Below are positions 251 through 29,900 of a stretch of DNA of 64,000 nt, in pieces. This DNA is from a virus. Taxonomy: Duplodnaviria; Caudoviricetes. The notes beneath the pieces were generated by a model, which was not told where the DNA came from, ran no database searches, and saw nothing but the letters and a program-made list of their open reading frames with translations. The first letter of the stretch is position 1. Each line of letters opens with the position of its first letter. Position numbers and translations under genes: made by a program. The stretch spans positions 31,087-95,086 of IMG/VR virus record IMGVR_UViG_3300032030_000041; one strand, 5' to 3'.

Positions 251-3200
251 ATGGCTGATGCAATTTAGGTTCCAGTACGATTATAGATAGCGAATTTATA
301 GGACTTAGTGAAGAATCTATAGAGTACTTTGGGAAATTTAAAAATAGGCACAAAAGGTTATTAGGATGTTGAAAATGCAATTAAGAGAATTCAAAGTGAT
401 ATTGATAAACTACAGTTGCAGAGTTCTAAACCATTTGTTTCTGAAAAGCAATTTTCTACAGCGGATAAAACAGTATCTAAGTTAGAAGAAGATGTGAGTC
501 GTGTAACTTAGATGATGTCTCGTGTTAAATTTGGAGACTTAGAACTTAACAATACCCAAAAGGCGCAATTAAAAGATTTTGAAACACAAATTGAAAATGT
601 TAAGAAAGCAATTGAATCATTAAAGGGCGTCGCAAAAGCTGATTTTCTTGCTGGCGATATAGGTAAATTATATTCTGATCTTGACCCTGCGGCCGCAACT
701 CGATCTTTTGAAGATATTGGAAAACGTATTGATCAAGAAGTAGATAAATAGATACGAAGTGTTAAAGCGGCAGAAGATGCGCTAAAAGATTATTAGAATG
801 CATAGCGTGTGAATAACAACATTGATTAGTTTCTATCTGGTAAAAATGGATTAGATGCTAAGACAATGGGTAAGCAGTTATATGATAAAATCTTCTAGCA
901 AGTTTCTATGAAAAACGGAAATATGGTTACTCGTTTTACTGGAAAAGGGCGCAGTTTACTAGAAGATTATTTAACGCAATAGTATAGTTTAGATCCGGCT
1001 TTTGCCCATGATTTGGTAAGCGATAAGGCCAGCGAAGTATTAAAGTTAATATCAACTTCAAACGAAGCTTTAACAGCAAAATTATAGGCCATTAAGCAGC
1101 GTAATGCGGCGACTATTAATAAAAATTCTACAGCTAAGATTGCCGTAGATGAGGCATAGAAAAAACTCGATGATGCGTTAGCTATGAAGTAGACGCATAC
1201 TGATGCGGGAAAAACATTAGATGAATCTACTAGTAAGATGAATTCTGGACTAACTACACTAATTGAAAATTTTCATAAATGGCAGCAAGCTCAGGCTGCC
1301 GCAGCAGGAGCCTCTCCTGCTTTAACATCTAGTGTATAGCGTTTTAATTAGGAAATTCAAAATTTACGCACTAATTTAGCTTCATCTTCTTCTGAGTTCT
1401 TGAGATTACAACGTACTGCATCTAATTTTAATGCTATTAAAATGTCTATTGTTAATTTTATGGGCTTTAGACAAGTATTAAACGTAGTAAAACGAGGTAT
1501 TTCCGAAGCTGTTAATCATATTAAAGAACTAGATACTGTAATGAATGGTATTTCTATTGTTACAGATATGTCTACGAGTGATCTATGGGGTCAAGTTGAA
1601 GCCTATAGTGATATGGCGTAGAAATATGGTACTACTATAAAAGGTGCATATGAAGTTTCATAGATTTACTATCAACAGGGTTTGTCTACAAATGAAGTTT
1701 TAACATTAACAGACTAGACATTAAAATTAGCAAAAATTTCTGGACTAGATTATGCTACAACTACTGACTATATGACTACTGCTCTTCGTGGCTTTAAGAT
1801 GGAAGCAGAAGATGCGGGTAGGGTTGTAGATGTTTATAGTAACCTAGCCGCCCATACTGCAGTATCATAGGAAGAACTTGCAATTGCAATGAGTAAAACA
1901 GCTTCTTCTATGGAATCTGTCGGGGCAACATTTGAAGAAACCTCTGCAATGATTGGTACAATGGTTGCCGTTACTCGTGAATCTCCTACTAATATTGGTA
2001 GTGCTATGAAGAGTATCGCCTCTCGTTATGGTGAATTAACAAAAGATCCTACGATTTTAAAAGATAGTGAAGGCGAAGAACTAGTATTCAACAAAGTTGA
2101 TGCGGCATTACAGTCTGTAGGTATTTCAATGCATACTGTAGATGGACAATTCCGTTCATTTACTGAAGTTATTACTGAATTAGGAGAGAAGTGGGACGAA
2201 TTAGATAGCACACAATAGCGTTATATTGCTACTCAATTTGCTGGTAACCGTCAGCAATCTCGTTTCTTGGCTTTAATTAGTAATATTGATACATTTAAAG
2301 CAAATTTGGAATATGCTGAAGATAGTGAAAATACAGGTACTTTACAAGCTTTGAAATCACTTGATTCTATTGAAGCCAAAGCGGAGCAAGTACGTGTTGC
2401 TTATCAACAAATGTATACCTCCCTCGGTGCAGAAGAACTATGGAAAGATGTTCTTGACATCGTGCGCGGTTTTGTAAATACTCTTAATGGCTTATCTAAA
2501 CCAGGTGCTCTAGTAACATTGATTGATACTATTAAGACATTAAAAAATATAGGCATAGGTACAGTTAGTAAAGTTTCTGATTCATATTTTAATGGCAATG
2601 GTGTTCTCGGATGGCTAACTGGTGGTAAATATAGACAACAAATTTTAGAATAGGATAAGGCTAGAAAAGCATAGCATGAACCTTTAATGTCACATTTGTT
2701 TGGTGCCACTACACAAGCTAATACGGCAGTAGATAGCAAGCGCGCGGCAGAAGAAGGTGCCGCCGCAGCAGCAGAGCGAGAAGCAGCTGCTAATGAAAGA
2801 ACCGCCGCTGCAGCACAACAGGCGGCGGCTGCGAAATAGGAGAATAAGAGTGCGAATTCAGAAACGGCGACAAGTCAACCTCAATAGCCAACTACCGCAG
2901 TAGATTTAGCAACATAGTTTGCAGGAAACGGCGTTACCCAATAGTTAAAACGAAATTTTAATCTTAGCGGTGATATTGAAGCGATAAAAGGAGAGTTATC
3001 CAGTTCTCTTAATGCAGTTATATCTTAGACAGAAGGAGCAAGCGCAGCTTTAGCTAATGCTGGTAAATTAGGAGTTGAGCAATATTTAAATGGTATTATA
3101 TCTGGCATTCCGGAATTATCAGATAAGGCGGCTGAATTATCTGCAGCACTTGTCGAAGGTTTAAATATCAGTTGGCCATAGTCGGAGAGTCCTGTAAATA

Positions 3201-6200
3201 GTTTAAATATAGATAATTTAAAATCTCAAATTACAGAGTTTTCTCAAGCAGCTAATTTAGAGCCAATATGGATTGAAGCCCGTTTAAAATTTGTTGATGA
3301 AATACAGGCTTTGGATCCAACTATATTATCATAGATTTAGGAAGCAATTAATGCAATTGACTTTAGTTCTCCAGATTGGCAAACAGATTTTACCGCGGCT
3401 ATAGAGAAAATTAAAGAAAATGCAGCTAGTCTTGGTATTGATTTAACGCCAGCCTTCGAAAAAGCGGGTGAAAATGGTATTGCTGGACTTGTAGCTGGCT
3501 TATCTTCTGGGAATCCTGCCGCAGTTGCAGGTGAAAAAGGTACATAGGTCATTGAAGCATTAAAAGCTGGTATGGGCTGTCATTCTCCTTCTGTATTTGC
3601 AATGATTGCTGGTTAGAATGTTATTGCAGGTTTATCTGAAGGGATACAATCTTCTGCACAAGAAGCAGTAGATGCAGCAAATAAAGCAGGTACTTCTGTT
3701 ATCGATGCTTTAAAAGAAGCTATGAAGTTCGATGATAATAGTTTTGCGGCTTTCAAAGATAGCATACTTGCATAGATTGATTAGCTTGGTCCAGACGTTA
3801 GTGAAGGAATGAAAGCAAGTATGCGTCAAGTAACAAATAACTTGACATTTGAAGATTTTCTTGCAGGAAAAGCTCCTCCTGAATTTTATTAGTTTGCAGG
3901 TATGTATGGAAATGCTGTAATGCAATCTGGAGTAGCTTATGCTAAGCAGAATATTGATACAGCAGCATAGGAAAAAAGTGATGCTTTAGGCTCATAGTTA
4001 TTATTAAATGAAAATGGTTTAACTGCGGAGCAGCAAGCAGAGTATGATGCGAGAAAAAAAGCAATTACGGCTAAATATGATACAGAATTTAATGATTTAA
4101 AGAAACAAAGAAATTAGATTGAAGAAGAACAAGAAATTTTATCTTAGAAGAAGGCGAATTCTTCTTTATCTGAAGCCGAGCAAGCTAGATACGATGACTT
4201 AGAACGGCAGAAAGCAGAATTGACTTCTCGTATGGCTCAAATTAACGGGTCTCCACTAACCGCGAATAATTTTGGTGGCTTTAAAGGTCTTGAGTAGTAG
4301 GCAAAAGAAGCTTTAGATGCGGAATATAGGGCAGTCGCAGAAAATAATCAAAAATATAATCAAGGTTTAAATCGTGATAAAAATAGTATTACGGCTGATG
4401 CAGAGCGTGAAAAACAAAAAATAGAATCCGAAGGATAGCTAGCTGCAAATAAAAATGCTAGAGATTTAGAATATCAAGCAAGTCGAGATATATATGGAAA
4501 AGATGCTCGTGCTGTTTTTACTGAATTTGATAATCTAGTATAGAATCTTTCACATTAGCATAGAGAACAGGAAAAGGTTCAAGAAAGTGCAGCAGCATTT
4601 CGTGAAACTTATGGTACATCAACTCAAAATGCATCGGCTACAGCAACACCAGTGGATACGGCTGCAGTAGAAGCCGAAACTGCTGCAATTAATGAAAAAA
4701 CTGCGGCATTGGAACGAGAAAAATAGGCTCAGGAAGCAGTACCATAGACGCCAATAGATGTTACTGTAGATCCAGAAGAGGCTCAAGAATAGGGCGCTAT
4801 CGCTGGAGATGCTGCAGCTAGTGCATATGGAGAAGAGGTGAGCAATAAAAATGTGTCACCTTCTCCAATAAATAAGGGTGAAGCTGCAGAGGACGGTAAT
4901 GATGCAGGAACGACTGCAGGTGATAGCTACATTGCCGCAGTGCGTAATAACAATGCATCGCCATCTCCAATAAATAAAGACGAAGCAGTAAATGACGCTA
5001 ACGACACCGCAGCAGTTGCAGCTGATGCATATGGAGAAAAGGTGAGCAATAAAGATGTGCCGCCTCCTCAACTAAATAAGAGTCAAGCTGAGGAGGATGC
5101 CAAGGCTACAGCAGAACAGGCTCAAGCAGCAGCTGCTGCGGAAAAAGCTCAAGAAACCGCAGAACAAGATCAAGACGTTGTTGCAGAATTAGCAGAACAA
5201 GCTCAAGAAATTGCAGAACAAGCTCAAGAAGATGCAGAATCAGATACAGATAAAGGTGCAGAACAAGAGAAAAGCACTCCTGCAGAATAGTCATCCTCAT
5301 AGGATAGTTTGCCAGGAGCCTTATCTGCCGTTGCAGACACCGCAAAAGGCGCTGCTGCTGCGCTCTAGGATCTAGCTACTGCAGGTAAAGGAGCAGCAGA
5401 CGCAAATAAAGCAGGAGCAGAAGCGGAATAGGAAGAAAAAGATGCTGCAACTAGAAATGCTGAAGCTAAAGACAGAGAAGCAGAGGCGTCTAATGGTACA
5501 GAAGATGCTAAAACAAGAGAAGCAAGTGCTTCTGACCGTGCAGCAGATGCAGATAATCGCGAGGCAGGAGCGAGTGAACAAGCTGCAGCCACGAAAGGTG
5601 GTTTTGGTAGCGGGAATATAGGAGGTTTTTCTAGTACAAAATTAAGTCAATTAGGTAGCGGTCTTAGTATGCTAGCTGGGACTCTTCCAACATTACTATC
5701 CAAACATGGTGTAATGGATTAGAGATCTTCTGAAAGGCTTGGTGGAGGTCTGAATTTTGTTAGCGGTGCTGCTAAAGGAGTTGCTGGCTTTTTTTCTGGT
5801 AATCCTATGATGATTATTAGTGGCTTTATGAGCGTTCTTAATGGAATTGATCAATGGAACGAAGATGAAAAAGAAAAATTAGAACGTTTAACTAAAGAAT
5901 CTGAAGAGGCTAAGAATGAATCTTTAAAAGCTACTGGTGAATACAAAGAATTACAAAGCGCAGAAAAGAAACTAACTGATTTACGTGCTAAGAGGTATGA
6001 CAGCGAAGAAGATGCTGAAGCATATTAGAATGCCGTTAATGATTTAACTTCTAAATTTCCTCAGTTAGTTGCTAATTTTGATGAGGCTGGTAACGCTATA
6101 TTAGAAGAAACTGCACTTACCTAGGCTTTGACCACAGCACGTAAAGAAAGTGCATAGGCGGCCTATGATGCAGCGAAAGCTGAAGTAGCCAGAGCGAAAT

Positions 6201-9200
6201 AGGCAAAAGAGAATGCCTTGAGTGAAGCAAGAAATAAAATTACTTCTAGTTTAGACTATTTAGCTACTGGCCCAGATACATATGTTTCGCCTAAAAACAA
6301 TTCTGCGAGATATGCTAACTTACTTAATAATTCTTCATTAATGCAACGAGTTTTATGGGATAATTCGGGCGTATCAAACGATGCAAATTCAATAACTGAC
6401 TTTATAAATTCTTTTGAAAATGAAAATCTTGCATAGTAGGCATTTTTAACTGCGTTATATAATCAAACTAAAGATGGTGATTTATAGACATTTTTTAGAG
6501 AACATTAGTAGTTTGAAGGACTCTATCTTTCGACTGATGTCTTGGATGAATTATTGAATACTCCCGAAGAAGAAATTGGTCTTAAAGATAGCAATTTCTA
6601 GGAAGCCGTAGGATTTTTCCGTGCATTTCGTAATTTGGGTACATAGCGCAATGAAGCTACGGCAGAAGAACAAACAAAAGCTGCGAATGATATTAATCAA
6701 GCAATTACTCAACTTCATAATGATGCACGAGATGGAACGGGCGATTTAAATGCAGATTTAGAAAGTTTAAATAGTTTATTAACACAATATAGTGACGCTA
6801 AATACGGATTAACTGAAGATATTGCAAATGTACGTGATGCACTGAGTGGAGGTATTAGTAATCTTGATACTTTTAATAAAGAAGCAGCGCAATTACAAGT
6901 TGGTATAAAAAAATAGATTACTGAGAAATTACGGACTAATTTTGATCAATCGGCAGTAATTAACAGTAGTACTGGTATATTTGAATTAATTTCATCTAAA
7001 TTAAATTCTGATTATGAAGCTGCTTTAGAGTAGACGCCTGATTTAGAATTTGATGCTTGGTGGCTTAATACCGGAATGAACTTAGCTCAATCTTTAATGT
7101 CTTTAGGAGATAGTATTCTTAATCAAATGACCGATGCTTAGCAGAGTGAATTTAAGTCTATGATTAAGAATAATCGTTACTACAGTGCCGATACAGTTAA
7201 AAAATATTTAACAGAGCGAGGCTATTTAACCAACGAGGGGTGGGAAACCGAAGAAGGTAAGGCATTTAGCGACTCTATTGATTAGACTTTTGCTGCCCAA
7301 GAATAGGTACGAAAGGATTTAATTGAAAAATATGCGACACAAGGTACCAATTTATCTGGTATTCAAAAATTCCAAAATCGTATGTTGTCTTAGTTAGATA
7401 AAGATACAGCCACAGAAGCTACTCGCGCAATGTACAATGACATCATTAGTAAGTATGAAGATATATATAAGTATGGTGATGATTTATCTGCATCTTATGG
7501 TTAGAAGGCATTAATATTTACTTCTGCCGTAATGAGACTTCAAGATGAAGAGCGCATGTCTGTTTAGCAAGTTTTAGAGCAAACAGGTTATACTGCTGAA
7601 GGATTACGTGAAGCTGCTGATAAACTTCGTGAAAATAAAGATGATAATCTTACAGACAAATAGGCTAGTGATATTGCGAGTAAATTAGAAGCTATGGCAG
7701 ATACCATGCTTACTAATATTGGACTTACATTAGATGCTCAAATTGATGCTTTTGTTAACAATTGGTCAGATGCTTCTAAAAACATTTCTACTGGATTATC
7801 GGGCATGGATGCTACTTCTGCATAGAAATGGTTAACTGAGAATGCGAAGTATTTGGAAAAAGGTGGCTTAAAAGATCTAGATTTATCAGATTTAACTTAT
7901 GCAGATGGAAAATTTTATACCAGTATAGAGTAGTTACGAGCATATGAACAAGGATTTGCTGAAAATTATCGTGCACAGGTTAAAGCAGCTACTACAGAGT
8001 TAGATAATATAGTATCGAAAAATGGCTTAAAATCTACCGATCTTGCAAGTATTTCTGCAGAGGCCACAAGTTTAAACAAAGATTAGTAGACAGATATTAA
8101 TCAATTAGCAGCCTGGGCTTCAGAGATTGGTTTAACTGATTTATTTACATTTGAAGTAGATGAAGAAGGAAAATATACTGGTAATGCTAAACTGGCTAAG
8201 GGCACTGCAGAGGAAGCATACAAAGCCATATTAGCTAAAGCGCAAGAATTAAAAGAATCTGGAACACATGTAGACGACTATATTTAGAATTTTTATTAGG
8301 AGCAAATAGATACTTTACAAGATGCTATTGATGTAGGAGAATATCTTAGTTCTGAAACGCGTGGAAAGGATACTGAATCTCGTAAAACATTAGAAGATTA
8401 GATTAGCCGCTATTTAACTGCATTAGATGTAGCTGGAAAGTTACAATTACCAGAAAGTTATTTAAAAAAAGCTGGATCTGAGGCGAGAGAACCATTAATT
8501 AGAGAATATACTAAGGCGCTAATTAAAGATTTGGAAGCAGGCGGATTGCAAGCAGTACAAGCTTTAAAGACCCTTAATCCCGATGCAACTTCTGAAGAAT
8601 TAGAACAAGCCTATTCTTATCTTTTTACTGAATGGCAACAAGCATTTGAATAGCTTAGTTCTATTGAAGTTGGCTCACTAGCCACTGGTAAAGTTAAAGA
8701 TATTCTTTTCGGTCTTCATATGGTTGATGAAGATGGTGTCGTTAATGCTACTTTTGATATGGTAGAAGCTTATACGGCTATCTATACTGAAATGAAGTCT
8801 ACTGCTGGCGCAACTACTGCCGATCTGAACAAAACCTATGCTGAACTTCTTACTGCTAAAGACCAACGTAATATGGATGTCACAGAGATGCTCGAAAATG
8901 CGTCCGGAATGACATACGATGCATTAGGACAAATCCTAAGTCGTTATAATATTAGACTTGAGGACGCGTTAGATGATGCTGCTGGTTATGGTTTAGAGAG
9001 TACAGGCTTTGGAAAAGTTCGTTTAACCAATTGGGAAGCTTTTGCCAAGAAGGTATTTAAGACTGAAGATTTAGCGGCGATTGCAAATACGCCAGAGTAT
9101 ATTAGCGCTTTTAAGGCTTATAATGATGGGCTTATTGAGTTAAATAAAAATACTGAAAAGGTTATAGTAGATGAAGTTAAGTAGATTGAAAGTGCAAAAG

Positions 9201-12200
9201 AGGGAGATTGGCTTAATTTAACCGAGTTTGGGACTTAGTATGTTACGGCATTAACAAAAAGTATTAATTTAGGAGATTATCTTGATTTAACTAATAATGA
9301 TTTAGGGATCGCATAGAAATTATAGATAGAAGCCGAAAAATATAATGAACAAATTATTCCTAAATTAAATAAAGAGCTTAATAAATGGGGCGCAAAGTTT
9401 GAGGATGGTATTCTTAAAATTGGTGATAACGCTAACTTATTAGGCATTGCTTAGACGTTAGAATAGGCAGCACAATAGGCAGGCTTAGATATCGGCAGTG
9501 GACTCGAAGAAGTTAAAGATGCTGTTCTTAATATTTTAAAATCCTATGCTGAAGCTATTACAAAAGGAATTTCTGGTGGTTTAACTAATACAGAAATGAG
9601 TGATTTAAAAACCAAAGCCAGAGATTTTGGAATTACAGACCTTCAATTTGTAGAAACTGCAGAAGGATTTAAATTAGTAAAAACTTCAGCTATAGAATTA
9701 TATTCTGCTTTAAAATCAATTGATGCCTTACATGCTGAACAAGCTTTTGATGCATTAAATGAATCATTACAAAAATCAGACGAACACTTTAAAACTACTG
9801 GAGCTTTAATGGCACATATTGCTAGTCTTCGTAAAGAGTTATATGCGGCAGATAATCAGGTTTCCAGTGCTAGAAAAGAGTAGTATGAAGCAGAATTAGC
9901 AGTTGCAGAAGAAATTCTTGCTGTTCGTTCAACTACTGAAGATGATTCTTTTAAGTTTATGGATTAGGCTATTCCTTCTGGTTAGAACAATCCATTAAAT
10001 TATTGGGAAGGCTGGCAAAAGGCTTTTAATGCTATAAATGAAAGCAAAAAAACAAAGCGTATGGATTATACCGATTTCTATAATTTGATGACAGAAATGG
10101 GTAATCTTTCTGCAATGCTTGGTGGAAAAGGTATTTAGATAGGTAAAGATTTAGAAGTTAATTCACAGAATTATGCTGATTTAATTACTAATGCTGCACG
10201 TAATTTAACTACTACCGCAGATAATACCAATTTACAAGTTAATTTACCTGCAATCGATGTTGATTTTAGTTCTGCTGAAAATATGGTAAGTGATGTTTAG
10301 AGCGGTATCCAAGCTGTTGCAGATGACCAAATTAATATGCTTGATGGATTAATTGCATTATTAGAAACTATTGTTGCCATGGAGAAATTAAATGATATTG
10401 TCGGCGGCGGTAGTGAGGATAATGCAATTGATTTAGGAGATATTTTCCCTGAAATTCGTTTTGACGCTTAGGGCAATGCTATTAATCCAGAGGCGTTAAC
10501 ATATGTGGAAGACTATTCTGATTTTATTAAGTATATTCGTCAATAGGCCGTTCATAATGATGATTTAGCGAAAGCATTACAATCAATGAAATTAGATGGT
10601 ATTTCTTTAGCAGAAATTTTTGAGATGGATGCCACTACGCTAGGTAAAAAGGGATAGAAATTTGTTACTGCGTATACTGCATTACTTGAAAGTCTACGAC
10701 AAGCCTCTATATCTGGAGATTATGATGTAGATAATATTATGGCTAGCGTGAAAAACGTTTTGGCTGAATCAGGTTTAACTGATTTAACAATTGATACTGG
10801 TAAAGCTACATTGATATTCTCTGGCGGCACTATTACACAAGTTAATTGGGAAGAACCCAATACTGCAGAAGTAGTAGAATAGGTAACGGCTCGTTTACAG
10901 GTAGATACAGAAAAAGCAAGATAGGCTGTTATAGATGCCGAGCAAGCGTATGCAAAAGGTAAGGGTACTGGCGAATTAACTCTTCAAGAAGTTTTAATTG
11001 TTGAAGGTAAAATTAAAATAGATCCAGAAACAAAAGAATAGTCTATATAGGTTGGTAATAGTACTTATAAATCAAGTGATAGTAAGTGGCAAGGCGCGCT
11101 TGAAGCACAAAGTCTCCTTAAAATGGGGATAGATAGTAAAAATATATAGATAGAAGATGACCGAGCACTATCTACTGAGTATCATATAGGTAATAAATTC
11201 AATATTACTGTAGAAGCTAAAGACGGTATTACAACTATTACAGGCACTGGAGCATATGGTGAAACAATTACTGGTAATAATCAAGATGAATGGTTAAAGA
11301 ACTATATATCAAGTTTCCGTGAATATTCCTTAAAATATGGAGAAACAGAAGCAGCTAAATGGACTGATAGTTAGATCTTATGGCGCACTTTAAAGATTCG
11401 AGTCAATACAGAAACTAAAGTTATAGATGAAAAAGGAAATGCCATAGATCTTTCTAATGATGCTGCTCGTCGTAAAGAGCTAACTGATATTCGAAATTAG
11501 TTACAAGCAGGGATGTCCGCAAAAGATTTGGGATTTACCGACTCTGGTGACGGCAACTGGGTTAAGACCTTAGAAACTGGCGGAACATTAGTTGTTGATG
11601 GAAGTAAGATTAAAGTAGACGTAGAAGGGAATCCAGATACCGCATAGTTTACTTCAGAAATAGAGTCTAGTCTAGGGATTGATCAGGCATTAAAAGATAC
11701 TATTTCTGCTGGAATTACTGCGTCAATTCCTTCTCTAACTCAAGCCTTAAATACAATTGATGCTCAGCCAGTTCAAGACGTTGCAGCGGCAATTTCTGCA
11801 ATTGCCACTGATGCGTAGACTGCTGTAACTAATATCTAGAACTTAGCTACTAATTTAGCTCAATTACAAACTCTTTCTCCAGAAAATAGTACTGGACAAG
11901 CAGCACAAGACTTAATACCTTCTTCACTTGAAATCCCGCTTAAATTAAAATAGGACGATGTAACAGCAGTACAAACATAGCTTAAGTCCTTTGAAGGTGA
12001 AGCTAAAATTGATGCTGACACGAGTGATTTTGATGATAAAGCAGAAGAAGTTAAGGGCACCTTAGATACAATTGGACTCGGCGCTGAGGCAAAAATTACT
12101 GTAGTCGATCAGGCTTCTGTTATTTTATCTCACATAGTTTCACTATTAAGATCAATTAATAGCAAAAACATTACTGTAACTACTACTTATGAAACAATAG

Positions 12201-14815
12201 GAACGCCTCCTGCCGGAGGTTTTGAATCTGGGGCAAACAAGGTTATTACAAACTCAATTAAGAAACCAGGTAAGGTGACAGGCAACATTGGTCTTGCCAA
12301 ATCCAAAGGAACTCTTATGGGCGAACTTGGCCCAGAACTTGTGGTCTCCAACGGACGTTATTTTGTCGCTGGACAAAATGGCGCGGAAATGGTTGATCTT
12401 GCAGATGATGCAATTGTTTTCAACCACTTACAGACCGAATAGCTTCTAAAGAAGGGGATGTCCAATAGTCGCGGTAAGGCTGTTACCTCTGAAAAGAATG
12501 CGGTTGCATTCGCAACTGGTAATACCGGTCCTGCAATGGCTAGTGCTTCCGCGGCATTAGCTGCTTTAAAACAACTACGCGCAATGTGGGAATCTCTTAA
12601 AGAGGCTTCAGTATCCGACCTCGCCGGTGGCGGCGGTGGTGGAGGAGGAGGCGGCGGCGGAGAAGATTCCAAAGTCGTTGATCCTTCTATTTGGGTTGAT
12701 ACAGTTGAGCGCTGGTATAACCTAATGCAGAAGATTGCTAAGCTTGAGAAAGAAATTACACACGAAGAAACCTTACGTTCTAAACTACAATCTGACTGGA
12801 ATGCGAATGGCAACCATTATTATGCTAGCTAGAAACGTTCTCTTGAAGCTTTAAAGCAATAGATTGATGCATAGGAACAACTTAACCTAAGTCGCGAAGC
12901 CTATTACGATCAGCGTGTTGAAGCGCTAAAGAACTAGCCTTTCGGCAAGCTTATTGAGTTTGATAACGAAGGTTAGATGCGCTTTAAATCTGGCGCGATG
13001 GAATGGCTAACTGATTTAGCTGGTTTTGATTCCTATGGAAAAGCCAACTATACTGACGAAGAGAAATATAATATACTCGTAGCCGCAGGTTATGAGGATT
13101 ATATGAAGTATAGTGAAGGCGGCGAAATTAAGATGGATAGCGACAGTAACGGTGAAGTTACTGATGAAGAAATGCAATCTTTCTATGGTGAAGCTACAAA
13201 AGCTTTCTGGGACAAGATTGACGAGTATAAGGAAGCCACCCAGAGTCTTTGGGATTCTATTAAAGAAGGCGAAGACAGTATTCTACAACTTCAAGCCGAT
13301 CAAAATGATTTACTTGAAGAAATTCGAGACAACCAGATGGAAGTTGAAGATGCTGTACTTAAAGCAATTGAAGATATGCGTCAGCGTGAAATTGATGCGT
13401 TACAGGATGAGCGCGATAAGTTAGAGGAATCTACTTAGAAATATATTGATGGACTAACAGATGCACTTAACAATGAGCGCTAGATGTATGAAAATCAATA
13501 GCAAGAAAATTCTCTCAATTAGCAAAGACGTCGTTTAGCTATTCTACAACGTTCTGGTGGTAGTGCGCAAGATATCGCAAATCTTCGTTCTGAAATTAAC
13601 CAGTCTGAAAGAGAAAGATATTTTAATTTACAGCAACAACAAATCGACGCTATTCAGTAGGCTTCTTAGCTAGAAATCGAACGTATGGATAGTCAGATTG
13701 AGTTAATGACTGAAGCGCTAGATTACTAGAAAGAATATGGCCTACTTTGGGGTAACGTATATGAAGTTATGGAAGGAACAGCGCAGCAGATTACTTCTTT
13801 CATTACGAACGGTAATTCTGAGTTCTGGGCATTATCACCATTAGGAACTGCTGATAACGCAAATCAAACTTTATTTAAGGCGGAATAGTGGACTTCTTAT
13901 AGAGCGGATTTAAATAATGCAAAAGCTGGTATTGGCGCGAATGGAGTAACTGCAAAAGATATTAGAGATAATGTCGCATTGATGGTTGCAATGACACGCC
14001 AGCAAATGAAGAGCAACGACTATGCTACCTTCGATGAAGCTATGAAAGCAGAATTTGGCGCTGGATATGACCCAAGCGGTGCATATCGTGACTTATTTAA
14101 TTCTGAATACGATAAGCACGGAGATCTTACAAAAGCTACTGCAACTGCGAGAGCAAAATATGCAGCTGATAAAGCTGCGGCTGAAGCCGCGAGAAAAGCA
14201 GCAGAAGCTGCGGCGACGCAGGCTAGTTCTGGTGGCGGCAGTGGAGACTCCGGCGGTGGAGGTGGTGGAGGAAGCTCTACCTGTAATACCGCTTGTAGTA
14301 ATTCGTGCGGTACAGAGTGTACTAAACGTTGCGCAGCAAATTGCGGTGGAGGATGCCAAATTCTTGCTGGTGGTTTTACAGTAGGCTTTAAAACTATAGT
14401 AGGTGATGCCACAAAAACCGCCGCTAAAGCTCCTACTCCATTAGCTCAGCCTAAAAAGAAATCTGTTGGCGGTTATGCTAACCACGGTATTTATGAGCTC
14501 GGTGAACTTGGTACAGAAACAGTCCTAACTGCTTCTCAAACCAAGATTCTCCGTGACAACATTCTCTCTAACCGTCCAAATTCTCTCATCTCTCTACTTA
14601 AATCTTATAACGAAGGTTATGATGGAATTAATAATTCCGTTAGTGGCGTAACTCCTGTTGAGGATAATTCCACCATTATCGAGAAAGTTGAACTCAAAAT
14701 GGAAGTTAAACAAATTGCTAATGATTATGATGCTCGTCGCGCAGGCGAACAAGCACTTAACGAAATGATGCGTATTGCCCGTAAGACTGGCGCTGCGAAC
14801 AGTATAAGGAGGTAA
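251..14815 (+). CDS. Giant tail tape measure protein, ~4854 aa when TAG=Gln
   Basis: RBS-like AAAGGGA/AAGGAG then ATG at 251. The main ORF-track fragments (512, 1400, 1889, 2267, 4838, 5807, 6218, 8720, 9596, 12458, 12977, 13979) share one frame and are broken by TAG; the gene ends with TAA at 14815. TP901-type TMP domain at ~1450-2400 (ELDTVM...GSAMKSIASRY...QRYIATQFAGNRQQSRFLAL), a GCHSPS motif and GELGPE/GELGTE motifs. The frame was spot-checked, not read codon by codon. Confidence 0.9.
4802..5107 (+). repeat. Three degenerate 102-nt (34-aa) tandem repeats within the tape measure gene
   Basis: AYGEEVSNKNVSPSPINK / SYIAAVRNNNASPSPINK / AYGEKVSNKDVPPPQLNK. GCATATGGAGAA occurs at 4823 and 5027, 204 nt apart. 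Confidence 0.8.
14282..14356 (+). repeat. Cys-X-X-X repeat block (7 Cys) near the tape measure C-terminus
   Basis: CNTA-CSNS-CGTE-CTKR-CAAN-CGGG-C following a poly-Gly/Ser linker. Confidence 0.9.
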
Positions 14816-14822
14816 AAGGAGT

Positions 14823-16715
14823 ATGGCAGATATTGCAACATTAATGGGTAATGAAGTGGAGTCTTAGACTCCATTTCGTACCCAAGTTTATAAGGCGACG
14901 CATGATGGGCAGCTTCGGCTGCCTTTCATGCAGCGCTCTTTTATTAGTTTTTCCTATGGTGGAAAAAACATTGAAGATTTTAATTTAATTGCATACACCA
15001 GCGGCGATAGGATGGAAAAAGCTGGATACGCAGATTTTGAAGACCTAACAACTACATATGACACAATTCAAGGACAATTCTATTGGGGAACATATTTTCA
15101 TGCCAATACATTAAGTTTTACTTTGGCAACAGATGGTATAACTGAAAACGAATTAGATGAATTTAAACACTGGTTTAGGGCCGGTTCAATTAGGGAATTG
15201 ATACTAGCCGAGCATCCCAATAGGGCAATCCTCGCGCGAGTATCAACACCGCCGCAATTACATCTTCTTGGATTTAAGCAAGAAGTAGAAGTGCCATTTC
15301 AAATCGGCAGTGATGAAAATATTCATGCTGTTTCCTACAAAACTTTTACTACTGTATATCGCGGCGAAATTGATTTAGAGCTTGTAATGGACGAGCCTTT
15401 CTGGTATTCTGTGCAGAATATCTTAGGGCATTAGAATACACTAGAAGGCTATTATGAAGAAAGCTGGATTGATGCTAATGGTCAATTGACTACTATTAAA
15501 GATTCTAAAGATGCACTTAAGATTATCTATGAAGATAGAATACCCTTAGGTAGTACTACTAAAATAGATGTATTCTTAGGTGGCGATATTTACGCATCTG
15601 TTAAATATGAAATATGGGCACGTATCGTGGGTGAAACTAGTAAAGACCTATATGATAGTGTAATGGAAGACGAAGCATCTTCAGATCAAATGAAATTTGC
15701 TTATTATACCGCAACAGAGGATCGTGAAACTTATGACCCTGAAACCGGCGAATCTTTAGGCCCAGCGCCGACTACTGTATATTATCGGGGCGGGCGCATT
15801 TACAATGATGAAACAAATCTTGGCGCGAAAATCGGTGGTGCAGAGTTAACAGGTTCTAGTGCGCCAGTACAAGGTATTGAATTGCCTTATGGCTCTAATG
15901 CAAATCTCTATTATGCTGGTACTGCGCCTTCTCCTGTAAAGTTGCGCTTTACTCTTAAACCGCAAATTAGGTAGCAAGACCCAACCGGCACTGGACAAGC
16001 TTTTTATATTATTACGCCACGTAATTCACATTCAGATGGTACGCCCGCATATAATACTATTACTTTGCGCGCGAGTGCCTTACATGAATTTAAGTTCACG
16101 CTACCGACTTTTTGGTTAAGTTACAATTAGGTTATTGAAATATTTGATAGCGATGAAATTATGGCGCCCGGTAATGCTTGGCTAACTGTACGCGAAACTA
16201 TACGTGATACAATACGTCATCCAGTAGTTCGTGCTTGGGCCAATATGCTTCTAGATAAATATGATACCTTAAATGGAAATGGTATCATTGGTGATGCGAA
16301 TCGGTATCGCGGCGATTTAGAAGAAGGTATGTCAATGCTTATATGTGATAAAACGGGTGAACCATTCTCTGCTGAATTTAGTTTTGATGCGAAAACCGGC
16401 CTTGCGATTGGAAAGTATACCTATCGTGATTTATAGCAGGCACGCGCGCAATTACCCAATATTGGCTCAACAAGTTCATGGCGTGAGTGTTTAAATTTAG
16501 TTGATGAAACAAATTATACTACTTCACAGGAAGAAAATGTTGGAGATATGGTGCGGAGTTAGTACCTAATATTAGATGAAAGAAATGTTTTAGATGGCAA
16601 TTATTAGGTACAAGCTTGGGAAGAAGCGCATCCAGATTATGCTTACTTAATTACTCACGATGTATCTAATGGCCTCTAGGACTTACATTTTGAATTTAAA
16701 AACTTGTATCTCTAA
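14823..16715 (+). CDS. Distal tail (Dit)-like protein, ~630 aa with TAG=Gln
   Basis: RBS AAAGGAG and ATG at 14823. Fragments 14928, 15486 and 16161 are in one frame. N-terminal FISFSYGG...EDFNL...LVMDEPFWYS and C-terminal FKNLYL-TAA fit Dit, as does its position directly after the TMP. Confidence 0.75.
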
Positions 16716-16737: not shown

Positions 16738-19700
16738 ATGGCTGATGGATTACTGCATTATTATAATACGAGAGTACGCAGCTATGAGGTTTCTATTTGG
16801 ACACTTTAGGACAGATTCTTATCTGTCCTAAAGTGGTCTACTATGGATTGTAAAGGGTAGATTTAGGATGGATCTGTGGTTATGCGTGACGACGGAACGC
16901 AAGAGCTTACATTTTCTATTCCTAAATATTATCAGAACGGAGCATCTCGTATTGATAATCCTATGTGGCTACACCTTGAAAATTAGCCGCTAGAAGCCAA
17001 TATGCATAAGCTGAAGATTATATTTAACAAGAACACAGAAGATGAGAAAGTACTTGAATTTTTAGTTACAGAAGTTACTCATGATCATTAGAGTGATAAT
17101 ATTGATATTAGCGTAAAAGCCGAAGGATTGGCTTTTCATGAGCTAGGAAAACTAGGATATAAAATTGCGTTATCTGAATAGAATTATTTAGATGCATTAG
17201 ATGAATGGGAAGAAGAAGGTTTCTTGACTGAGTAGCCACTCAATAATATTTAGTTTTGGAATGATTTAGTATTCAAGAAGTCTAATGGAGATTGGAAATA
17301 TAATTGGACATACGAGATTCGTATGGATTGGTCTTCATTCAAGAATCCGGACGTGTTTTAGGAAGCTTCATATAGAAAGAGTAATATTCTATATGAAGAT
17401 GACTATGTATCTTCTTGGGAAGTTGGCGCCGATGGCAAGCTAGTTTCGCGTACTATATAGAATATGCGCGAAAAGTGCCGCATTATGGATGTATCAGAGA
17501 GCAATATTTATAATATAACGCAAGATATCGCTAAGCAATTTGGCGTTTTTTGCCGCTACGAATACACTCATGATAATAATTATTAGATTATCGGACGAAA
17601 AGTAGTTTATTATAATAACTATCTCTAGGATGTATAGGGACATATTGATTTAACTTATCCCTACAATTCTACAGCAATTACACGTACTGTAGATAATAGT
17701 AATGTTACTACTAAGATGTTTGTAACTGGTGTAGATTATGATTCTGATACTGTTACAATTATGGATGTAGATGCTAATAAGAGCAAAGAAGACTACCTAC
17801 TTAATTTTGATTATCTACGACAGAATTAGGGCATTACGGATGAATAGTATGATGAGATAGGATATTATGAAGCCGATATGCACACCCTTAATACAAACTT
17901 AATTCAAATCCAAGAACGCATTCGCATTGTACAGAATCAATTGACAGAAGCAGAAGCACAATTAACTATACATGAAAATGCAATTGATTTAGATCGTGAG
18001 CGTATGGAAGAAGCAGGTAAACTGCGCGCAGAACTTACTGGTGGCACTAATGTCATTCCTATTAACGGAACAGCGTGTACTTTATTATATAAAGCTGAGC
18101 GTGGATTTTATATTAATATTCGTTGGAATGGTTTATTACGCAATACTGTTAAGATATATCGTACTACAAATTATACAGGTTCTGACCGTTCATTTGATGG
18201 GCTCATTACCTAGTATTCTTTTGTCGCAGATGAATTTTAGAATGTAATTCGTATTGAGCATATTGCGGGCGCAGGCTTAGAAGAAGGAAATACATTATGG
18301 CTAGTAGGACAGTATAATCCGACTTTAGCATATGATAATATAGAGAAGATTTGGAAAACTCGTTTAGCTTATGATTTGGCACAAAAAGAGCTACTTGAGG
18401 AACGTATTCGGATACTAAACTTCTATCTATATGGCTGCCGTTTAGGTTTTGCGCGTGTAGATATCTCTTCTTTGCCAGAAGAAGAGGTTGGCGCACTGGG
18501 TATTGTTTGGGATGAAGATACCGATCCGTCTGAAGTAGAAACAGTGACACGTAGTGTACGTGTAGATGAATCTCGTATCTTAAACTCTGAAGAAGAGTTT
18601 ATAGATTGGGATTATGATTACTTTGGCTTATTGGATGAAAAGAAAGGTACTCCCGAGTTATTATACAATGAAGCTCGTCATTTAGAGAATAAAGCACAGT
18701 TAATTAGTGATTTTGAGAAGATGATGGGTCCGGCACTGCGTGAAGGCTATTGGAATCCTGAGAACTATCATGACTATGGAGACCTATTTAAAAAGAGTTT
18801 TAGCTTAGTAACAGCCTTAAAGCCTACTGTATAGACCTTGCGTCCAGATTCCGAAGATCATTTTACATGTATTTGGGACTATGAAAAATATTATGACAGC
18901 GAGACTCCTTTGCTATATGATACAGAGATTGCAGATAAAGTAGAATAGCATTTAGTTATAAGCTTGAAGGATTTAACAGCAGAAGGGCAAGATAAATTAA
19001 TTAGTCATTTAGGAGAGATTTGTTTTGTTTACTGCAGTCCGGCAAATGTTTCTACTATTCGTGAATTAAAAGAAAAAGGCTACGAAGATACTAGTGAAGA
19101 AATTATTGCGTTAGAAAATAGTAAATATTATAGTTATCAAGTTAATTCTGGATGTGAATTAGGATGGATAGTTACAACTAATATAAATAGCGCTGGTAGA
19201 GCTTCTTTAGAATTAGCGCTCATCGTTACTGGCGCGAAAGAATTGGATGATGACACATATAATTTCTTAGTAACAAATAAGTATAAAGTATCTTATGTTG
19301 ACCCAGATACTGAGCGAATAGTTACTAATCTAGTAACTGCAGACGCAGAAGCTCGTAGTTTTATTGGTTATCCAATATATAATCAGGATGGCAGTGTTAC
19401 CTGGGAAAACATTCTCACTGTTGGTGGACAAGCAAGTAGATTTTTAGGCACACGAGAAGTTTCTAATGGTGATTATGATAATAATGGTAGCACACGGCCG
19501 CCGACTCCATAGGAATATCAATATAAACGTGTATATCCGCGTTTATATTTTGATACACTAAAATTAAAAGAAAAAGCTCTAGAGATTTTCTAGAACTCGT
19601 ATTAGCTTGAAGAAAATAAAGAATTTTACGTACTTGAAGATGATAGATCTGAGGGATTGAATATAAAAGGAATTGGCTATTACGTTACTTTAAAACCTGA

Positions 19701-22269
19701 GACAATTCTTATTACCACTAAATCTAAGGTGGATTATACTGTATTATACAGTCTTTCTAACTTAGATGTTTCCATTTATTTGGATGCTATTAAAGTTATG
19801 AAAGAAAATGCTTTCCCGAAGGTTTCGTATGAAGTAGAATTAAGCTTATTAAATCCGGAGTTCGTACATACTGCTTATAATAGGCTTAATTAGGTTGTAC
19901 ATATCAATGATAATGATTTAAAGTTAGAAAATATTAGTGGATACATCTCTACTATTACGATGGACTTAGACCATCCATGGCAAGATACCATCGAGATTAA
20001 GAACTATGAAACGAAATTTGAAGACCTATTTACTACAATTGTCGCGCAAACAGAAGCAATGAAAAGTAATTAGGTGGGATTAGAAACAGCGGTATAGGCA
20101 TTTACTGCTAATGGACTAATTGACCCAGAAGTAGTATATGATAGTATACGTAGTTCTAATTTGAATCTTGCTTTCAACGCAGGCACATTAACTATAGATT
20201 AGGCTGATGGTATCTGGGGTACTAGCGATAGCGGCGTTGTTGCATTTCGTGGCGGCGGTATTTTTACTGCTACGGAGCGAGATACTAGCGGCAATTGGAT
20301 TTGGAATACTGGTATTCTACCATCTGGAATCAATGCTAATTTAATTACATCAGGTTAGCTAGATACAAATAAGATTAGAATATTTGCTGGTGACCAGCTT
20401 AAATTCCAATGGAATGGAGAAGGTTTATATGCCTATAAATCATTTTCAAATGAATATCTAAAGTATCTATAGAGTTAGGATGTATCATTCGTTCCTCATT
20501 CCCAGTTATTAGATAAGAAACAATATGTTGTATATAACTCAGAAGGTTTATTCCTTACAAGTGAAGCTGGTTCTTATATTATGAAGGAGAATGTTGGCGG
20601 AGAAGGTTATATCTATGAACGCTTAGACGATACTGTACATCGTGTCGAAATAAGCTGGAATGGACTTATTTTGCGGAATTGGGAAGCAAAAAAAGTATTC
20701 TATGCTGACCCAGATACAGGTAATTTAACATTAAGCGGTCGTATTGAAACACGTAGCGGGCATATTGGCGGTTGGGAAATTAATGAACACATGCTTGCTG
20801 GCGCAGGTATTCAGCTAATTAGTGGATCTGAGACTAATACTGTTAATAATGCTGGTATATATTTAAATGATAATTAGGATTTGTGTGATACTGTCACTAT
20901 TAATGGTTCTACGTATTATACTTATTATTATACCGATCCAGCAGATTCGCGCAGAAAAACATGCTATTTGAATTATTATACGCCTGGCGTCGCCTCTATT
21001 ACTTTAAATGGTGGTTAGTAGGTTTATACATAGCAATCGGTAATAAAGACTGTATCACCAAAGTTTGTATTTGCCGTTTCTACATATGATACTGATATTG
21101 ATGCAACTAGTACGAATACATATACAGAAGCAACGGCAACAGTAACTAATAGTGATACAACATTATATTTTGCTAAAACTTCAGGCAGTAAAACGCCTGT
21201 TAAGGATTCGCGTGGAGTAGTTATCGAATATGATTTAACCAATAGCGCGAATGCGGGTTGGTATCAAGCTGCAAAACAGGCCGATCCTTCTAATTATACA
21301 AATTATATTAATGAAGTATATGGAATGGATTATGTTTTAACTACGCTTTCTTCTTCCGCATTAACTTTAACTCCTTCAGTTGTAACAACTACAACATTTA
21401 GTGTTAGAGCTTCTTCAGGAGAAGCAAAGATATTAGCGGGTACTATAGGAAACTTCACTATTAATCGTACTTCTTTAACTGGTGGTACAATTGCTAATAG
21501 CGTATTCAACATTGATAACTATTATATGGCCGGTTCGAAGAAACATGCTTTTGGTGATTGTTTCTGCGATATAGATGCTAATAGCTCACAAGGTATATTT
21601 ACATTGACCCGTGTGGATGGTAGAACTGCAAATTTTAATATTGCCGCGATGGAAGCCTATTAGAATGCCGTCGCGGCTGCGGGTTCTATTACTTTAACAC
21701 TAGTAGATAATTAGGATATGACTGTAACTGCGACTGCAGTGAGCGGTAATGGCACAGTTGTAACAAGGACTCTTACTGTAGATACATGTGGAGATACGTG
21801 TACTGGTACATGTAAAGGCAATTGTTCAACAAGTTGCACCGGGGATTGTGGTAGCGGATGTTCTGGCGGCTGCGGTGGTGGATGTTCTGGTGGCTGTGAG
21901 GATAACTGTGATACTGGATGTAAAGGCGGCTGTGGCCGCAGATGTGAAAGTAATTGCTCTGGAAAATGTGGTAAGAATTGTACTGGTGGATGTATTGGGT
22001 ATTGTAAGGGCGAATGTCTAGACTCCTGTCTAGGTGGTTGTAAAGGAACCTGTGTTAGTGGCTGTAGTAATTCATGTACTGGTACCTGTAGTACCACTTG
22101 TGATCTACATTGTAGTTCAGGTTGTGGTAATAATTGTATGGGTTCTTGTAAAGATGGATGTGGTAGCAGCTGTACTGGCGACTGTAAAGGTAGTTGTAAA
22201 CAAGGATGTAAAACTGGGTGCTTGAGTACATGTACAGGAAAAAGTACAAAAGTACTTATTGACGGTTAA
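16738..22269 (+). CDS. Large tail/baseplate hub (Tal-like) or host-specificity protein, ~1843 aa with TAG=Gln, C-terminal Cys-X-X-X repeat domain
   Basis: RBS AAGGAGGA and ATG at 16738. Fragments 17878, 18376, 18964, 19657, 20581, 21325 and 21718 share one frame. Contains WNTGILPSGINANLITSG and GHIGGWEI motifs typical of minor tail proteins; third gene of the TMP-Dit-Tal order. Confidence 0.8.
21787..22233 (+). repeat. 38 consecutive Cys-X-X-X units (12-nt period)
   Basis: CGDT CTGT CKGN CSTS ... CKTG CLST CTGK with no break in register; X is mostly G/S/T/K/D/N. Confidence 0.95.
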
Positions 22270-22274
22270 TTAAC

Positions 22275-22320
22275 AAAAAAATAGCCCGGACGTTTAATAA
22301 CGTCCGGGCCTTTATTTTTT
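22275..22320. terminator. Bidirectional intrinsic terminator between the convergent gene arms
   Basis: GCCCGGACGTT-taat-AACGTCCGGGC (22284-22309) with an A-run on the left and a T-run on the right. Confidence 0.85.
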
Positions 22321-22712
22321 TACTCATCTTCAAGATTTAAGAATGGCTCAAGGAATGTAATATCAGTAGGTGTAAAATCTAGTTGTTCAATATCAGAAAA
22401 CTTAATAGGATCGGCTTCCACGGTTGTTTCTTCTGCGACTAGCTTATTCATTTCTTCTACAAATAGCTTCATATGAGCTTCATCAAACTGATATTCGTTT
22501 TTTTCATTCAATTCAAATGAGCCATCTTCTTTCTTCTTAGCATATTTTTCTAGTAAGCTATTTCTTACTTCATTATATGATGTAAGAACTTCTTCTAGCC
22601 TCTTTAGAAGACGACCAATACGAAATGCTACGCGTCCAGGCAACGCTTGATTACTTAACTTCTGTAATACTTCTTGCCCTTCCAATATATCGCGTAAAGT
22701 TACTCTAATCAT
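22320..22712 (-). CDS. Conserved phage protein (DUF1617-like)
   Basis: MIRVTLRDILEG...AFRIGRLLKRLEE...LLEKYAKKKEDG; ATG overlaps the upstream TGA (ATGA). Confidence 0.6.
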   Translation of the reverse strand: MIRVTLRDILEGQEVLQKLSNQALPGRVAFRIGRLLKRLEEVLTSYNEVRNSLLEKYAKKKEDGSFELNEKNEYQFDEAHMKLFVEEMNKLVAEETTVEADPIKFSDIEQLDFTPTDITFLEPFLNLEDE

Positions 22713-26371: not shown

Positions 26372-26919
26372 ATATTTGGTTCTATAAGATTACTAAAAAT
26401 AACTCCACCAAATATATTACCAATAATTGTACCCAATAATGGAAATCCAATAGTACCAGCTGCAATCATATAATAAGCATCAGCAATGCAGTGGTTAAAA
26501 CCGCCAAGAATAAAACCCATCACACACGGAAAGCACATCCATAGTGGAGACTTTTCATATGTAGCAATTGACATTAGCATACCACATCCAATTCCCTTTA
26601 TCGCGGCTTCCCATATGGGTTGTGACATTTTAGTCGTGGCAATAGCTGCAGAAGCACTATTATGTGCGAGAAGTGCCATCAATGATACTCCTACTATATT
26701 TCCAAGCAAAACTATCAAATAAAAATACCAAGGATATTGCTTAGTTACCATAAATTGGATTTTGCCAGTAAATAGGTTTAGCTTATATATTCGAACTGTA
26801 AGTAATCCACATGAAAATAGAAAAGCGCCAACTATTGCGTTAGGAGCTGCTAGATACATCCAGCAGCCTAATGCAATTGCCATTCCGGCAAATATTGACT
26901 TATATATGTCCTTCTTCAT
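26368..26919 (-). CDS. Formate/nitrite transporter (FNT, FocA-like) family channel
   Basis: SIFAGMAIALG, LNLFTG, LLGNIVG, GIGCGMLM, GFNHCIAD, IIGNIFGG; about six hydrophobic helices. Confidence 0.85.
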   Translation of the reverse strand: MKKDIYKSIFAGMAIALGCWMYLAAPNAIVGAFLFSCGLLTVRIYKLNLFTGKIQFMVTKQYPWYFYLIVLLGNIVGVSLMALLAHNSASAAIATTKMSQPIWEAAIKGIGCGMLMSIATYEKSPLWMCFPCVMGFILGGFNHCIADAYYMIAAGTIGFPLLGTIIGNIFGGVIFSNLIEPNI

Positions 26920-27400
26920 AATATTTCTCCATATTAATTATTCGTTGGTTTGAAGAACCACGTAACGGCAATGTCGTATCTCTTTTATCCTGCTCATAAC
27001 GACCATCTATTAAGCAGGTAATATTATGTAAAATATGATCTAAAGTACGATTATCGCGCTTCTCTAATTCTTCCATTGTATAACCTGTCCATAAATAAAT
27101 TTTTAAATCTGGATAATCTAGCTTACACCAACCAATTAAATCCATCACATCTTCTAAGTTTTCATCGGCTAGTGGCTCGCCGCCAAGAATGCTAAGAGAG
27201 CGCATTACTCCATTCTTATTAAGCTTCTGCATAATCTCTTGGCGTATATCTAATCCATATTCCTCGCCATAATTAAAATCTTGTGCTTCGGGATTGTGAC
27301 ATCCGGGGCAATGGAAATGACATCCCGAAAAATACACAGAGAGGGAGATACCTGGCGCTGCCGCGGTATCATCCCAATAGATTCCTGCAATCTTACTCAT
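26900..27400 (-). CDS. nrdG: Anaerobic ribonucleotide reductase activating protein (radical SAM)
   Basis: SGCHFHCPGCHN CxxxCxxC motif, LGGEP, DGRY, RGSSNQR. Confidence 0.95.
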   Translation of the reverse strand: MSKIAGIYWDDTAAAPGISLSVYFSGCHFHCPGCHNPEAQDFNYGEEYGLDIRQEIMQKLNKNGVMRSLSILGGEPLADENLEDVMDLIGWCKLDYPDLKIYLWTGYTMEELEKRDNRTLDHILHNITCLIDGRYEQDKRDTTLPLRGSSNQRIINMEKYYEEGHI

Positions 27401-29691: not shown

Positions 29692-29693
29692 TC

Positions 29694-29900
29694 TCACTTC
29701 CTAAATTTCTTCCCGCAATAGGGGCATTGACCTTGATCTGAAAAATCATAACTACCACTGTTATGAGGACACATATTTTGTAATTCTTTAATTTCATCTC
29801 TAATTACAAACACTCTATCTTTACGTTCCATTGTCGCTAGAGCGCTGCGTAATTCTTCGCTCAACTTTTGATATTGAGCATAAATATCATTTTCATTCAT
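29694..29900 (-). CDS. Small zinc-ribbon protein
   Basis: 68 aa, CPH...CPYCGK. Confidence 0.65.
   Translation of the reverse strand: MNENDIYAQYQKLSEELRSALATMERKDRVFVIRDEIKELQNMCPHNSGSYDFSDQGQCPYCGKKFRK

Follow-up and report, generated by a model that had tools for sequence, protein, structure and literature searches.

A cysteine ladder near the end of a phage tail-tip protein, a candidate substrate of a phage-encoded radical-SAM/SPASM maturase

The stretch of DNA described here, a window of 64,000 nt from a large uncultured phage of the sheep or goat gut, forms part of a 95,086-bp IMG/VR record (G000) judged 54% complete, and our subject is a run of cysteines, one at every fourth residue, near the C-terminus of a predicted tail-tip protein; we refer to this run as the cysteine ladder. 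Open reading frames (ORFs) were read under genetic code table 15, with TAG as Gln. Under table 11 the + strand from 251 to 22269 breaks into a string of short ORFs, whereas with TAG as Gln it resolves into three long genes (Table 1): a tape-measure gene matching PF10145, a 630-aa gene in the distal-tail (Dit) position and, behind them in the Tal position, the 1843-aa tail-tip gene. The ATG of the tail-tip gene is preceded by a strong AAGGAGG ribosome-binding site, and the first ~1130 residues of its product are conserved in related 165-190 kb phages. Family searches with the 630-aa gene returned no match. A predicted terminator downstream of the tail-tip gene divides the late (+) from the replication (-) gene block.

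Table 1. Features of the window that bear on the cysteine ladder (positions in the 64,000-nt window; strand "." for a feature acting in both directions).
Feature	Position	Strand	Content or basis
Tape-measure gene	251..14815	+	4854 aa, 123 in-frame TAGs; PF10145 PhageMin_Tail, 109 bits
Short ladder, 7 Cys at period 4	14282..14356	+	in the C-terminal part of the tape measure, after a poly-Gly linker
630-aa gene, Dit position	14823..16715	+	gene order only
Tail-tip gene, Tal position	16738..22269	+	1843 aa, 35 in-frame TAGs; third in the row of tape-measure, Dit-position and Tal-position genes
Pre-ladder segment	21592..21786	+	~aa 1619-1683; last two in-frame TAGs (21661-21663, 21712-21714), ATG 21718
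Cysteine ladder	21787..22233	+	38 Cys, every fourth residue, aa 1684-1832
C-terminal tail	22234..22269	+	11 residues, then TAA (22267-22269); ORF translation
Intrinsic terminator, bidirectional	22284..22309	.	GC-rich stem of 11-12 bp, T runs on both strands
NrdG, not the ladder maturase	26900..27400	-	Fer4_12 131.9 bits and Radical_SAM; adjoins NrdD (PF13597, 494 bits)

The tail-tip protein has 51 cysteines, 38 of which form the strict period-4 run, and the residues between them are chiefly Gly, Ser, Thr, Lys, Asn and Asp. The ladder cysteines are encoded by 34 TGT and four TGC codons. All 37 of the twelve-base units are distinct, with a mean pairwise identity of 49%, and Tandem Repeats Finder detected a single weak 42-nt array in the ladder DNA. 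Because every unit differs and only a weak array is detected, the cysteine period is preserved at the protein level and does not reflect recent slippage. Across ten tail-tip homologues (five of them 74-79% identical to the window protein and five more distant), the ladder Cys columns are invariant or nearly so, although the number of cysteines ranges from 18 to 49. With relatives of the phage included, ladder counts run from 10 in the fragment G059 through 22 in the fragment G057, 26 in the complete genome G031 and 38 in G000, up to 49 in database homologues.

Several lines of evidence tie the ladder to the tail-tip protein. The database homologues of the tail tip are single full-length proteins of 1808-1994 aa with 47-79% identity and C-terminal ladders; the five closest (1828-1884 aa, 74-79% identical) share the N-terminus and have ladders of 34-49 Cys, and the more distant ones have ladders of 18-26 Cys. 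Opposite the in-frame TAG at 21661, the alignment has CAA (Gln) for G057, TAG for G031 and AAA for G059. In G059 the junction before the ladder consists of sense codons throughout, with no TAG and no ATG, and the ladder of G031 itself contains two TAG codons. The three late genes of the window have AAGGAG(G) 6-10 nt before their starts, whereas ATG 21718, just after the last TAG, has only AGGA one base away, and no promoter-like site was found upstream of it. These data support the view that the ladder and the tail-tip protein are made as one chain through TAG read-through. A preliminary description of the window, made from its letters alone, had proposed this link to the tail protein, had placed 38 cysteines at every fourth residue near the end of the 1843-aa product and had argued from diverse DNA units against simple slippage; our counts and alignments agree with it on all of these.

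We searched family models with the 183-aa ladder segment and found that it scores 28.9 bits against TIGR04114 ('tSAM_targ_Cxxx'; cut-off 20) and 18.6 bits against TIGR04117. The TIGR04114 search with the whole 1843-aa protein returned no match. A match to phrog_6085, an unannotated phage family, spans aa 1635-1741, and database homologues carry PF27846. The 38-Cys block thus belongs to the CXXX-repeat class (TIGR04114 / PF27846), and the TIGR04114 and TIGR04115 families named in the preliminary description do exist and fit. In the computationally defined CXXX-repeat system, TIGR04114 (= PF27846) and TIGR04117 are the targets, TIGR04115 is the maturase, a radical S-adenosylmethionine (SAM)/SPASM enzyme, and TIGR04116 is an associated protein.

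The ladder is a portable module. Its carriers include proteins of ~200-240 aa with a conserved N-terminal domain (here called small CXXX proteins), collagen-like and other tail-fibre proteins, proteins with F5/8-type-C, CBM (carbohydrate-binding module) or laminin-G domains, bacterial OB-fold proteins with signal peptides, and proteins with 140-160 Cys. One group of carriers (P0078, P0082-P0088, P0091 and P0097; 447-589 aa) combines twin-arginine-like signal peptides with ladders of 40-69 Cys; some have OB-fold matches, one is of NCBI source, and they look cellular and not phage-borne. Another (P0063-P0068 and P0071; ~1600-1800 aa) has PF09479 (Listeria-Bacteroides repeat) domains followed by ladders of 99-163 Cys, the longest encountered. 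A tblastn search of deposited phages with the ladder segment gave no match, probably owing to the low-complexity filter, and with a small CXXX protein as query it gave one unannotated record. A search for related loci with the tail-tip protein alone found none, and one with the 10-sequence alignment found 13 loci and no further complete ladder-bearing genome.

We next compared the distribution of ladders and maturases among relatives of the phage. The polymerase gene led to 77 related loci, with complete genomes of the clade at 165-190 kb, and 30 records were searched for TIGR04115 and, with a pattern of six Cys codons at period 12, for ladders. One of the 30 relatives had a TIGR04115 match: G031, a complete genome of 188,358 bp whose polymerase is 95% identical to that of G000. 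Its maturase gene (181833-182933) scores 324.7 bits in the genome search and 336.6 bits as a protein and covers model positions 2-359; translated under code 15 through 8 in-frame TAGs, it has intact CX3CX2C and SPASM cysteine motifs. The ladder pattern occurred only in G000, G031 and the short fragments G057 (polymerase identity 96%) and G059 (86%). Nineteen of the relatives are 90% complete or more; ladder and maturase were both present in one of these and both absent from 18, with none discordant. G032 (polymerase identity 90%, 75% complete) is without ladder and maturase; it is uninformative because the region that holds the maturase gene is also absent from it. In all six frames of the whole G031 genome the 26-Cys run of the tail tip is the sole Cys ladder, which leaves the tail-tip protein as the only candidate phage substrate of the G031 maturase.

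Positions 1197-95086 of G000 are collinear with 126015-26051 of G031, and by this collinearity the site of the G031 maturase gene falls in the ~87 kb absent from the G000 record. In G031 the gene lies ~80 kb from the ladder, in a second late tail-fibre gene cluster. In a sheep-gut sequencing run, a possible source of the record, every sampled word of the tail-tip gene was present; goat and other sheep gut runs contained parts of the gene. Contigs in this sheep-gut run are 81-92% identical to the G031 maturase (one of 1354 nt, at depth 26), which shows that the sample contains maturase genes of the clade. These contigs are not tied to the G000 phage itself and give weak support for a maturase in it.

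The maturase gene occupies a defined slot. In G031 and in the relatives G061 and G063, whose orthologues are 82-84% identical to the G031 maturase, a ~650-aa tail protein (phrog_5302) is followed by a 91-aa gene, a gene for a 135-aa protein with two CBM5/12 domains, a ~90-aa helper gene, the maturase gene (~430 aa) and a 112-114-aa gene with a Lys/Glu-rich product. The G031 helper has 92 aa, overlaps the start of the maturase and has conserved counterparts in G061 and G063. Of the genes scanned around the maturase in these three genomes, those for the phrog_5302 tail protein and the CBM5/12 protein gave family matches, and none of the others matched a peptidase or transporter family. TIGR04119 had no match in five records. 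The CBM5/12 protein itself (L135:670-1074 in G031; orthologues on L147, L153 and L176-L179) was found in all examined relatives, with or without maturase. Four complete relatives that have no ladder (G033, G034, G036 and G037) retain the first three genes of this order, those for the tail protein, the 91-aa product and the CBM protein, and helper and maturase are absent from all four. In G037 both flanks of the slot are kept, the CBM gene being followed after 106 nt by the Lys/Glu-rich gene, and exactly helper and maturase are absent; in G033, G034 and G036 other genes come after the CBM gene. Helper and maturase thus form a single insertion or deletion of two genes, always at this position, that tracks the ladders.

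Two of these relatives show other pairings of enzyme and ladder, both consistent with an enzyme whose target is distant. G063 has the helper/maturase pair together with two ladder blocks in its tape measure, in the same variable insert as in the window. G061 (L147:9723-14204) has a tandem of two helper and maturase pairs that share 52% identity; a canonical CXXX protein (237 aa, 33 Cys) follows the second pair alone, and the first, conserved pair has no adjacent target. This arrangement suggests that in G061 one enzyme serves distant ladders and the other the adjacent CXXX protein.

The association extends beyond the clade. Small CXXX proteins used as queries led to 56 phage loci, and of these 30 records from unrelated phages were searched for TIGR04115. 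All 30 had a match, 28 of them above the 350-bit cut-off, as did all 14 that were at least 90% complete. In six measured records the maturase gene lay 0.07-1.4 kb from the CXXX gene. In L025, a complete 58.8-kb phage, the tape measure, a hub with NlpC/P60, baseplate J, Tail_P2_I and a tail fibre are followed by a 104-aa gene, the maturase, the CXXX protein, two unknowns and a phrog_5302 tail protein.

We therefore favour, with a probability of roughly 0.68, the hypothesis that the ladder, made as one chain with the tail tip, is a domain of a virion protein on which a radical-SAM/SPASM maturase of the TIGR04115 family, encoded by the phage, acts. The tail-tip protein with its ladder would be made late in infection, with TAG read as Gln, and a phage-encoded TIGR04115-family maturase, together with its ~90-aa helper, would act on the ladder. 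The genes for both would lie in the half of the genome beyond the record, at the position of the second late tail-fibre cluster that holds them in the relative. In the anaerobic cytoplasm of the host, the enzyme would turn the cysteines into a series of thioethers before or during tail assembly, and the product would be a covalently stapled appendage on the tail tip's distal end, resistant to proteases and to reduction. The short tape-measure ladder would be treated likewise. The next-best families for the G031-type maturase are the PapB ranthipeptide maturase, the SCIFF maturase and QhpD, all of which are thioether-forming (PMC11002830), and thioether links are probably the product of the ladder too. 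The 8 TAGs in the G031 maturase gene indicate that it is expressed in step with the virion genes. It is speculation that a stapled rod or knot in this position, resistant to reduction and proteases, would suit the rumen. The broader proposal, that across a ~180-kb amber-recoded rumen phage clade a radical-SAM/SPASM enzyme staples virion proteins (the tail tip and some tape measures) with dozens of thioethers, we consider evenly balanced between being right and wrong.

A number of observations weigh against this hypothesis. A search of the entire 95-kb record, ~54% of the genome, found no TIGR04115 or SPASM gene and no helper gene; NrdG, which adjoins NrdD, is the sole radical-SAM gene. The presence of a maturase in the G000 phage is thus extrapolated from its relatives. 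The G031 maturase scores just under the curated TIGR04115 cut-off of 350, and its helper aligns with positions 3-89 of the 90 in TIGR04116 at a weak 14 bits (E 0.008). With one complete positive relative, the profile within the clade reflects few independent events. Thioether formation, the acceptor residues and indeed any modification of the cysteines are presumed from family kinship, and our literature search found no paper characterising any TIGR04115 member, the family having been defined by comparative genomics. AlphaFold2 run without an alignment on residues 1555-1843 gave an unusable model (mean pLDDT, predicted local distance difference test, 35). Lastly, the Tal name of the 1843-aa protein comes solely from gene order, its N-terminal part having returned no Pfam, PHROG, NCBIfam or PDB sequence match. 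The preliminary description had already reported no intact SPASM maturase in the window and had named NrdG as the dedicated RNR activase, and we could extend the absence of SPASM genes to the whole record; its proposed link between ladder and maturase is upheld by co-occurrence in the clade and in all 30 other phages, but not by the 95-kb record itself.

The strongest competing explanation, to which we give a modest but real chance, is that the ladder is an unmodified Cys-rich domain that binds metal ions or Fe-S clusters, or forms disulfides after release, in the manner of a metallothionein or a disulfide-rich fibre, and needs no maturase. Its cysteines set among Gly, Ser, Thr and Lys resemble the composition of metal-binding Cys-rich proteins, the maturase is absent from the 95-kb record, and G057 and G059 have ladders without a maturase within the sequence recorded. 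This explanation, however, leaves open why ladder and maturase strictly co-occur in complete relatives, why two genes are cleanly inserted or deleted together at a conserved slot, and why the association holds in 30/30 unrelated phages. Known metal sites have CXC or CXXC spacing; the spacing of the ladder is strictly CXXXC, and it has no Pfam or NCBIfam match to metallothionein. In addition, the ladder segment scores as a member of a radical-SAM target family, and a strict period of four over 38 units with free variation between the cysteines is typical of enzyme-recognised repeats.

It is improbable, though less so than separate translation of the ladder, that the maturase of the relatives acts elsewhere, on a host peptide or on an undetected small phage peptide, and that its co-occurrence with ladders is hitch-hiking in one sub-lineage. 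The clade has a single complete positive genome, and the second maturase of G061 has its own adjacent small CXXX protein, which makes other substrates possible. Yet no second Cys ladder exists in any frame of G031, the G031 maturase with its 8 TAGs would be co-expressed with the virion genes and is located among tail-fibre genes, and G063 independently pairs a maturase with tape-measure ladders. Least probable is that the ladder is translated on its own, as a 183-aa protein from ATG 21718, an alternative raised in the preliminary description: under table 11 positions 21718-22269 do form an intact ORF whose ATG directly follows the last TAG, and free-standing small CXXX proteins are common in other phages, but this ATG lacks both a promoter-like site and a Shine-Dalgarno sequence at usable distance such as the AAGGAG of the neighbouring genes, the G059 junction offers neither ATG nor TAG, the G031 ladder contains TAGs, the homologues are single 1808-1994-aa proteins, and the N-terminal domain that small CXXX proteins conserve is missing (its comparison with aa 1455-1687, before the ladder, gave an hhalign probability of 0.3).

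The closest counterpart of the ladder is the CXXX-repeat system, with which it shares long period-4 Cys runs, an above-cut-off model score and, in G031 as nearest complete relative, a TIGR04115-type enzyme whose small candidate helper lies directly upstream. The target in that system is a small peptide beside the enzyme, whereas here it would be a block in the tape measure and the C-terminal end of a virion protein of 1843 aa, with the enzyme ~80 kb off (in the relative) and the genes gated by TAG recoding. Phage tail-module cassettes (phrog_6085 with phrog_1802), one of which is present in G061, have the same ladder module, maturase family and tail-fibre or baseplate setting; they differ in that their substrate, a protein of ~200-240 aa, has a conserved N-terminal domain that the tail-tip protein lacks and is encoded no more than ~1.5 kb from the enzyme (six measured). 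The presence of these small proteins in virions is in doubt, whereas the carrier here is a tail structural protein by gene position. The capsid chainmail of HK97-type phages, formed by autocatalytic Lys-Asn isopeptide cross-links, is likewise a covalent post-translational stabilisation of the virion, but the ladder would involve enzyme-driven radical chemistry on a tail appendage.

Among characterised radical-SAM enzymes, PapB (the freyrasin maturase) ranks second among the families that the maturase of the relatives matches, at 147-178 bits and far below the PapB cut-off of 340. PapB installs six thioether rings on repeated Cys-X3-Asp motifs (PMC11002830). In the PapB motif the acceptor is the fourth residue after the Cys, a place that in the ladder is taken by another Cys and not by Asp, so that the acceptor in the ladder must differ from that of PapB. 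Unlike the PapB and SCIFF systems, the ladder system has no evident leader or core peptide, peptidase or exporter. A classical RiPP (a peptide made by the ribosome and then modified after its translation) has a short leader/core precursor, cleavage and export; the ladder, in contrast, ends an 1843-aa structural protein. A precedent in this respect is QhpD, a radical-SAM/SPASM enzyme that forms Cys-to-Asp/Glu thioethers in a subunit retained in a protein complex (PMC11002830). Its family, TIGR03906, is among the matches of the maturase, and its target, QhpC of quinohemoprotein amine dehydrogenase, stays in the complex; the differences are that QhpD makes few cross-links in a small enzyme subunit, with no repeat ladder and no link to viruses.

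The preliminary description had called the ladder a candidate new system, a label that does not hold, the family being already defined computationally in TIGRFAMs/NCBIfam; our literature search found no paper on a phage-encoded version. What is new here is the fusion of the ladder to tail-tip and tape-measure proteins, a maturase encoded far from its target, clean presence or absence at a syntenic slot, and one complete genome with a virion protein as the only possible target. If the hypothesis is true, the chemistry of radical-SAM peptide maturases, which is familiar from one enzyme subunit and from small secreted peptides, would also stabilise phage tails covalently. If the broader proposal holds, it would be the first RiPP-type radical chemistry to build a virus particle, and ladder length (10-49 Cys) would be a fast-evolving trait of the host-contact end of the tail. 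The locus is an unusually clean case for testing: the only possible substrate in G031 is a tail structural protein, and the doubt over the virion presence of small CXXX proteins is thereby avoided. The TIGR04115 family would also gain a defined, expressible substrate-enzyme pair, and stop-codon recoding would be linked to the expression, at one and the same time, of an enzyme and the structural protein that is its target.

The short tape-measure ladder occupies a variable insert flanked by conserved tape-measure segments. This hypervariable insert (window 14150-14500) holds the 7-Cys ladder in G000, two ladder blocks in G063 (L154:1108-3012) and an unrelated ~170-aa insert in G031 (~80900-81420). 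In G031 (L137:997-1530) and G059 (L139:~1600-2097), the tail-tip ladder is followed by a Hint/intein-like domain of ~165 aa, also found in the database proteins P0022, P0070, P0073 and P0076 and not in the window or G057. The domain has Cys at its start and HN at its end, gives matches to PF14890, PF01079 and TIGR01445, and may be a C-terminal domain that cleaves itself off. If it does, all mature tail-tip proteins would end in the ladder, as in G000.

ARAGORN found no tRNA gene, and hence no amber suppressor tRNA, in the 64-kb window despite the TAG-rich late genes. TAGs also occur in some genes of the replication block: a RuvC-like gene with an HNH-like N-terminus (22709-23458, - strand) has 7 and the NrdD gene (27400-29727, - strand) has 1, and the NrdG, dUTPase and polymerase genes have 0. 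The tape measure of G031 (G031:80550-96602; L163/L170) has 5351 aa, against 4854 aa in the window. Tail length follows a rule of ~0.15 nm per tape-measure residue, and by this rule proteins of 4854-5351 aa predict tails of ~700-800 nm, among the longest predicted.

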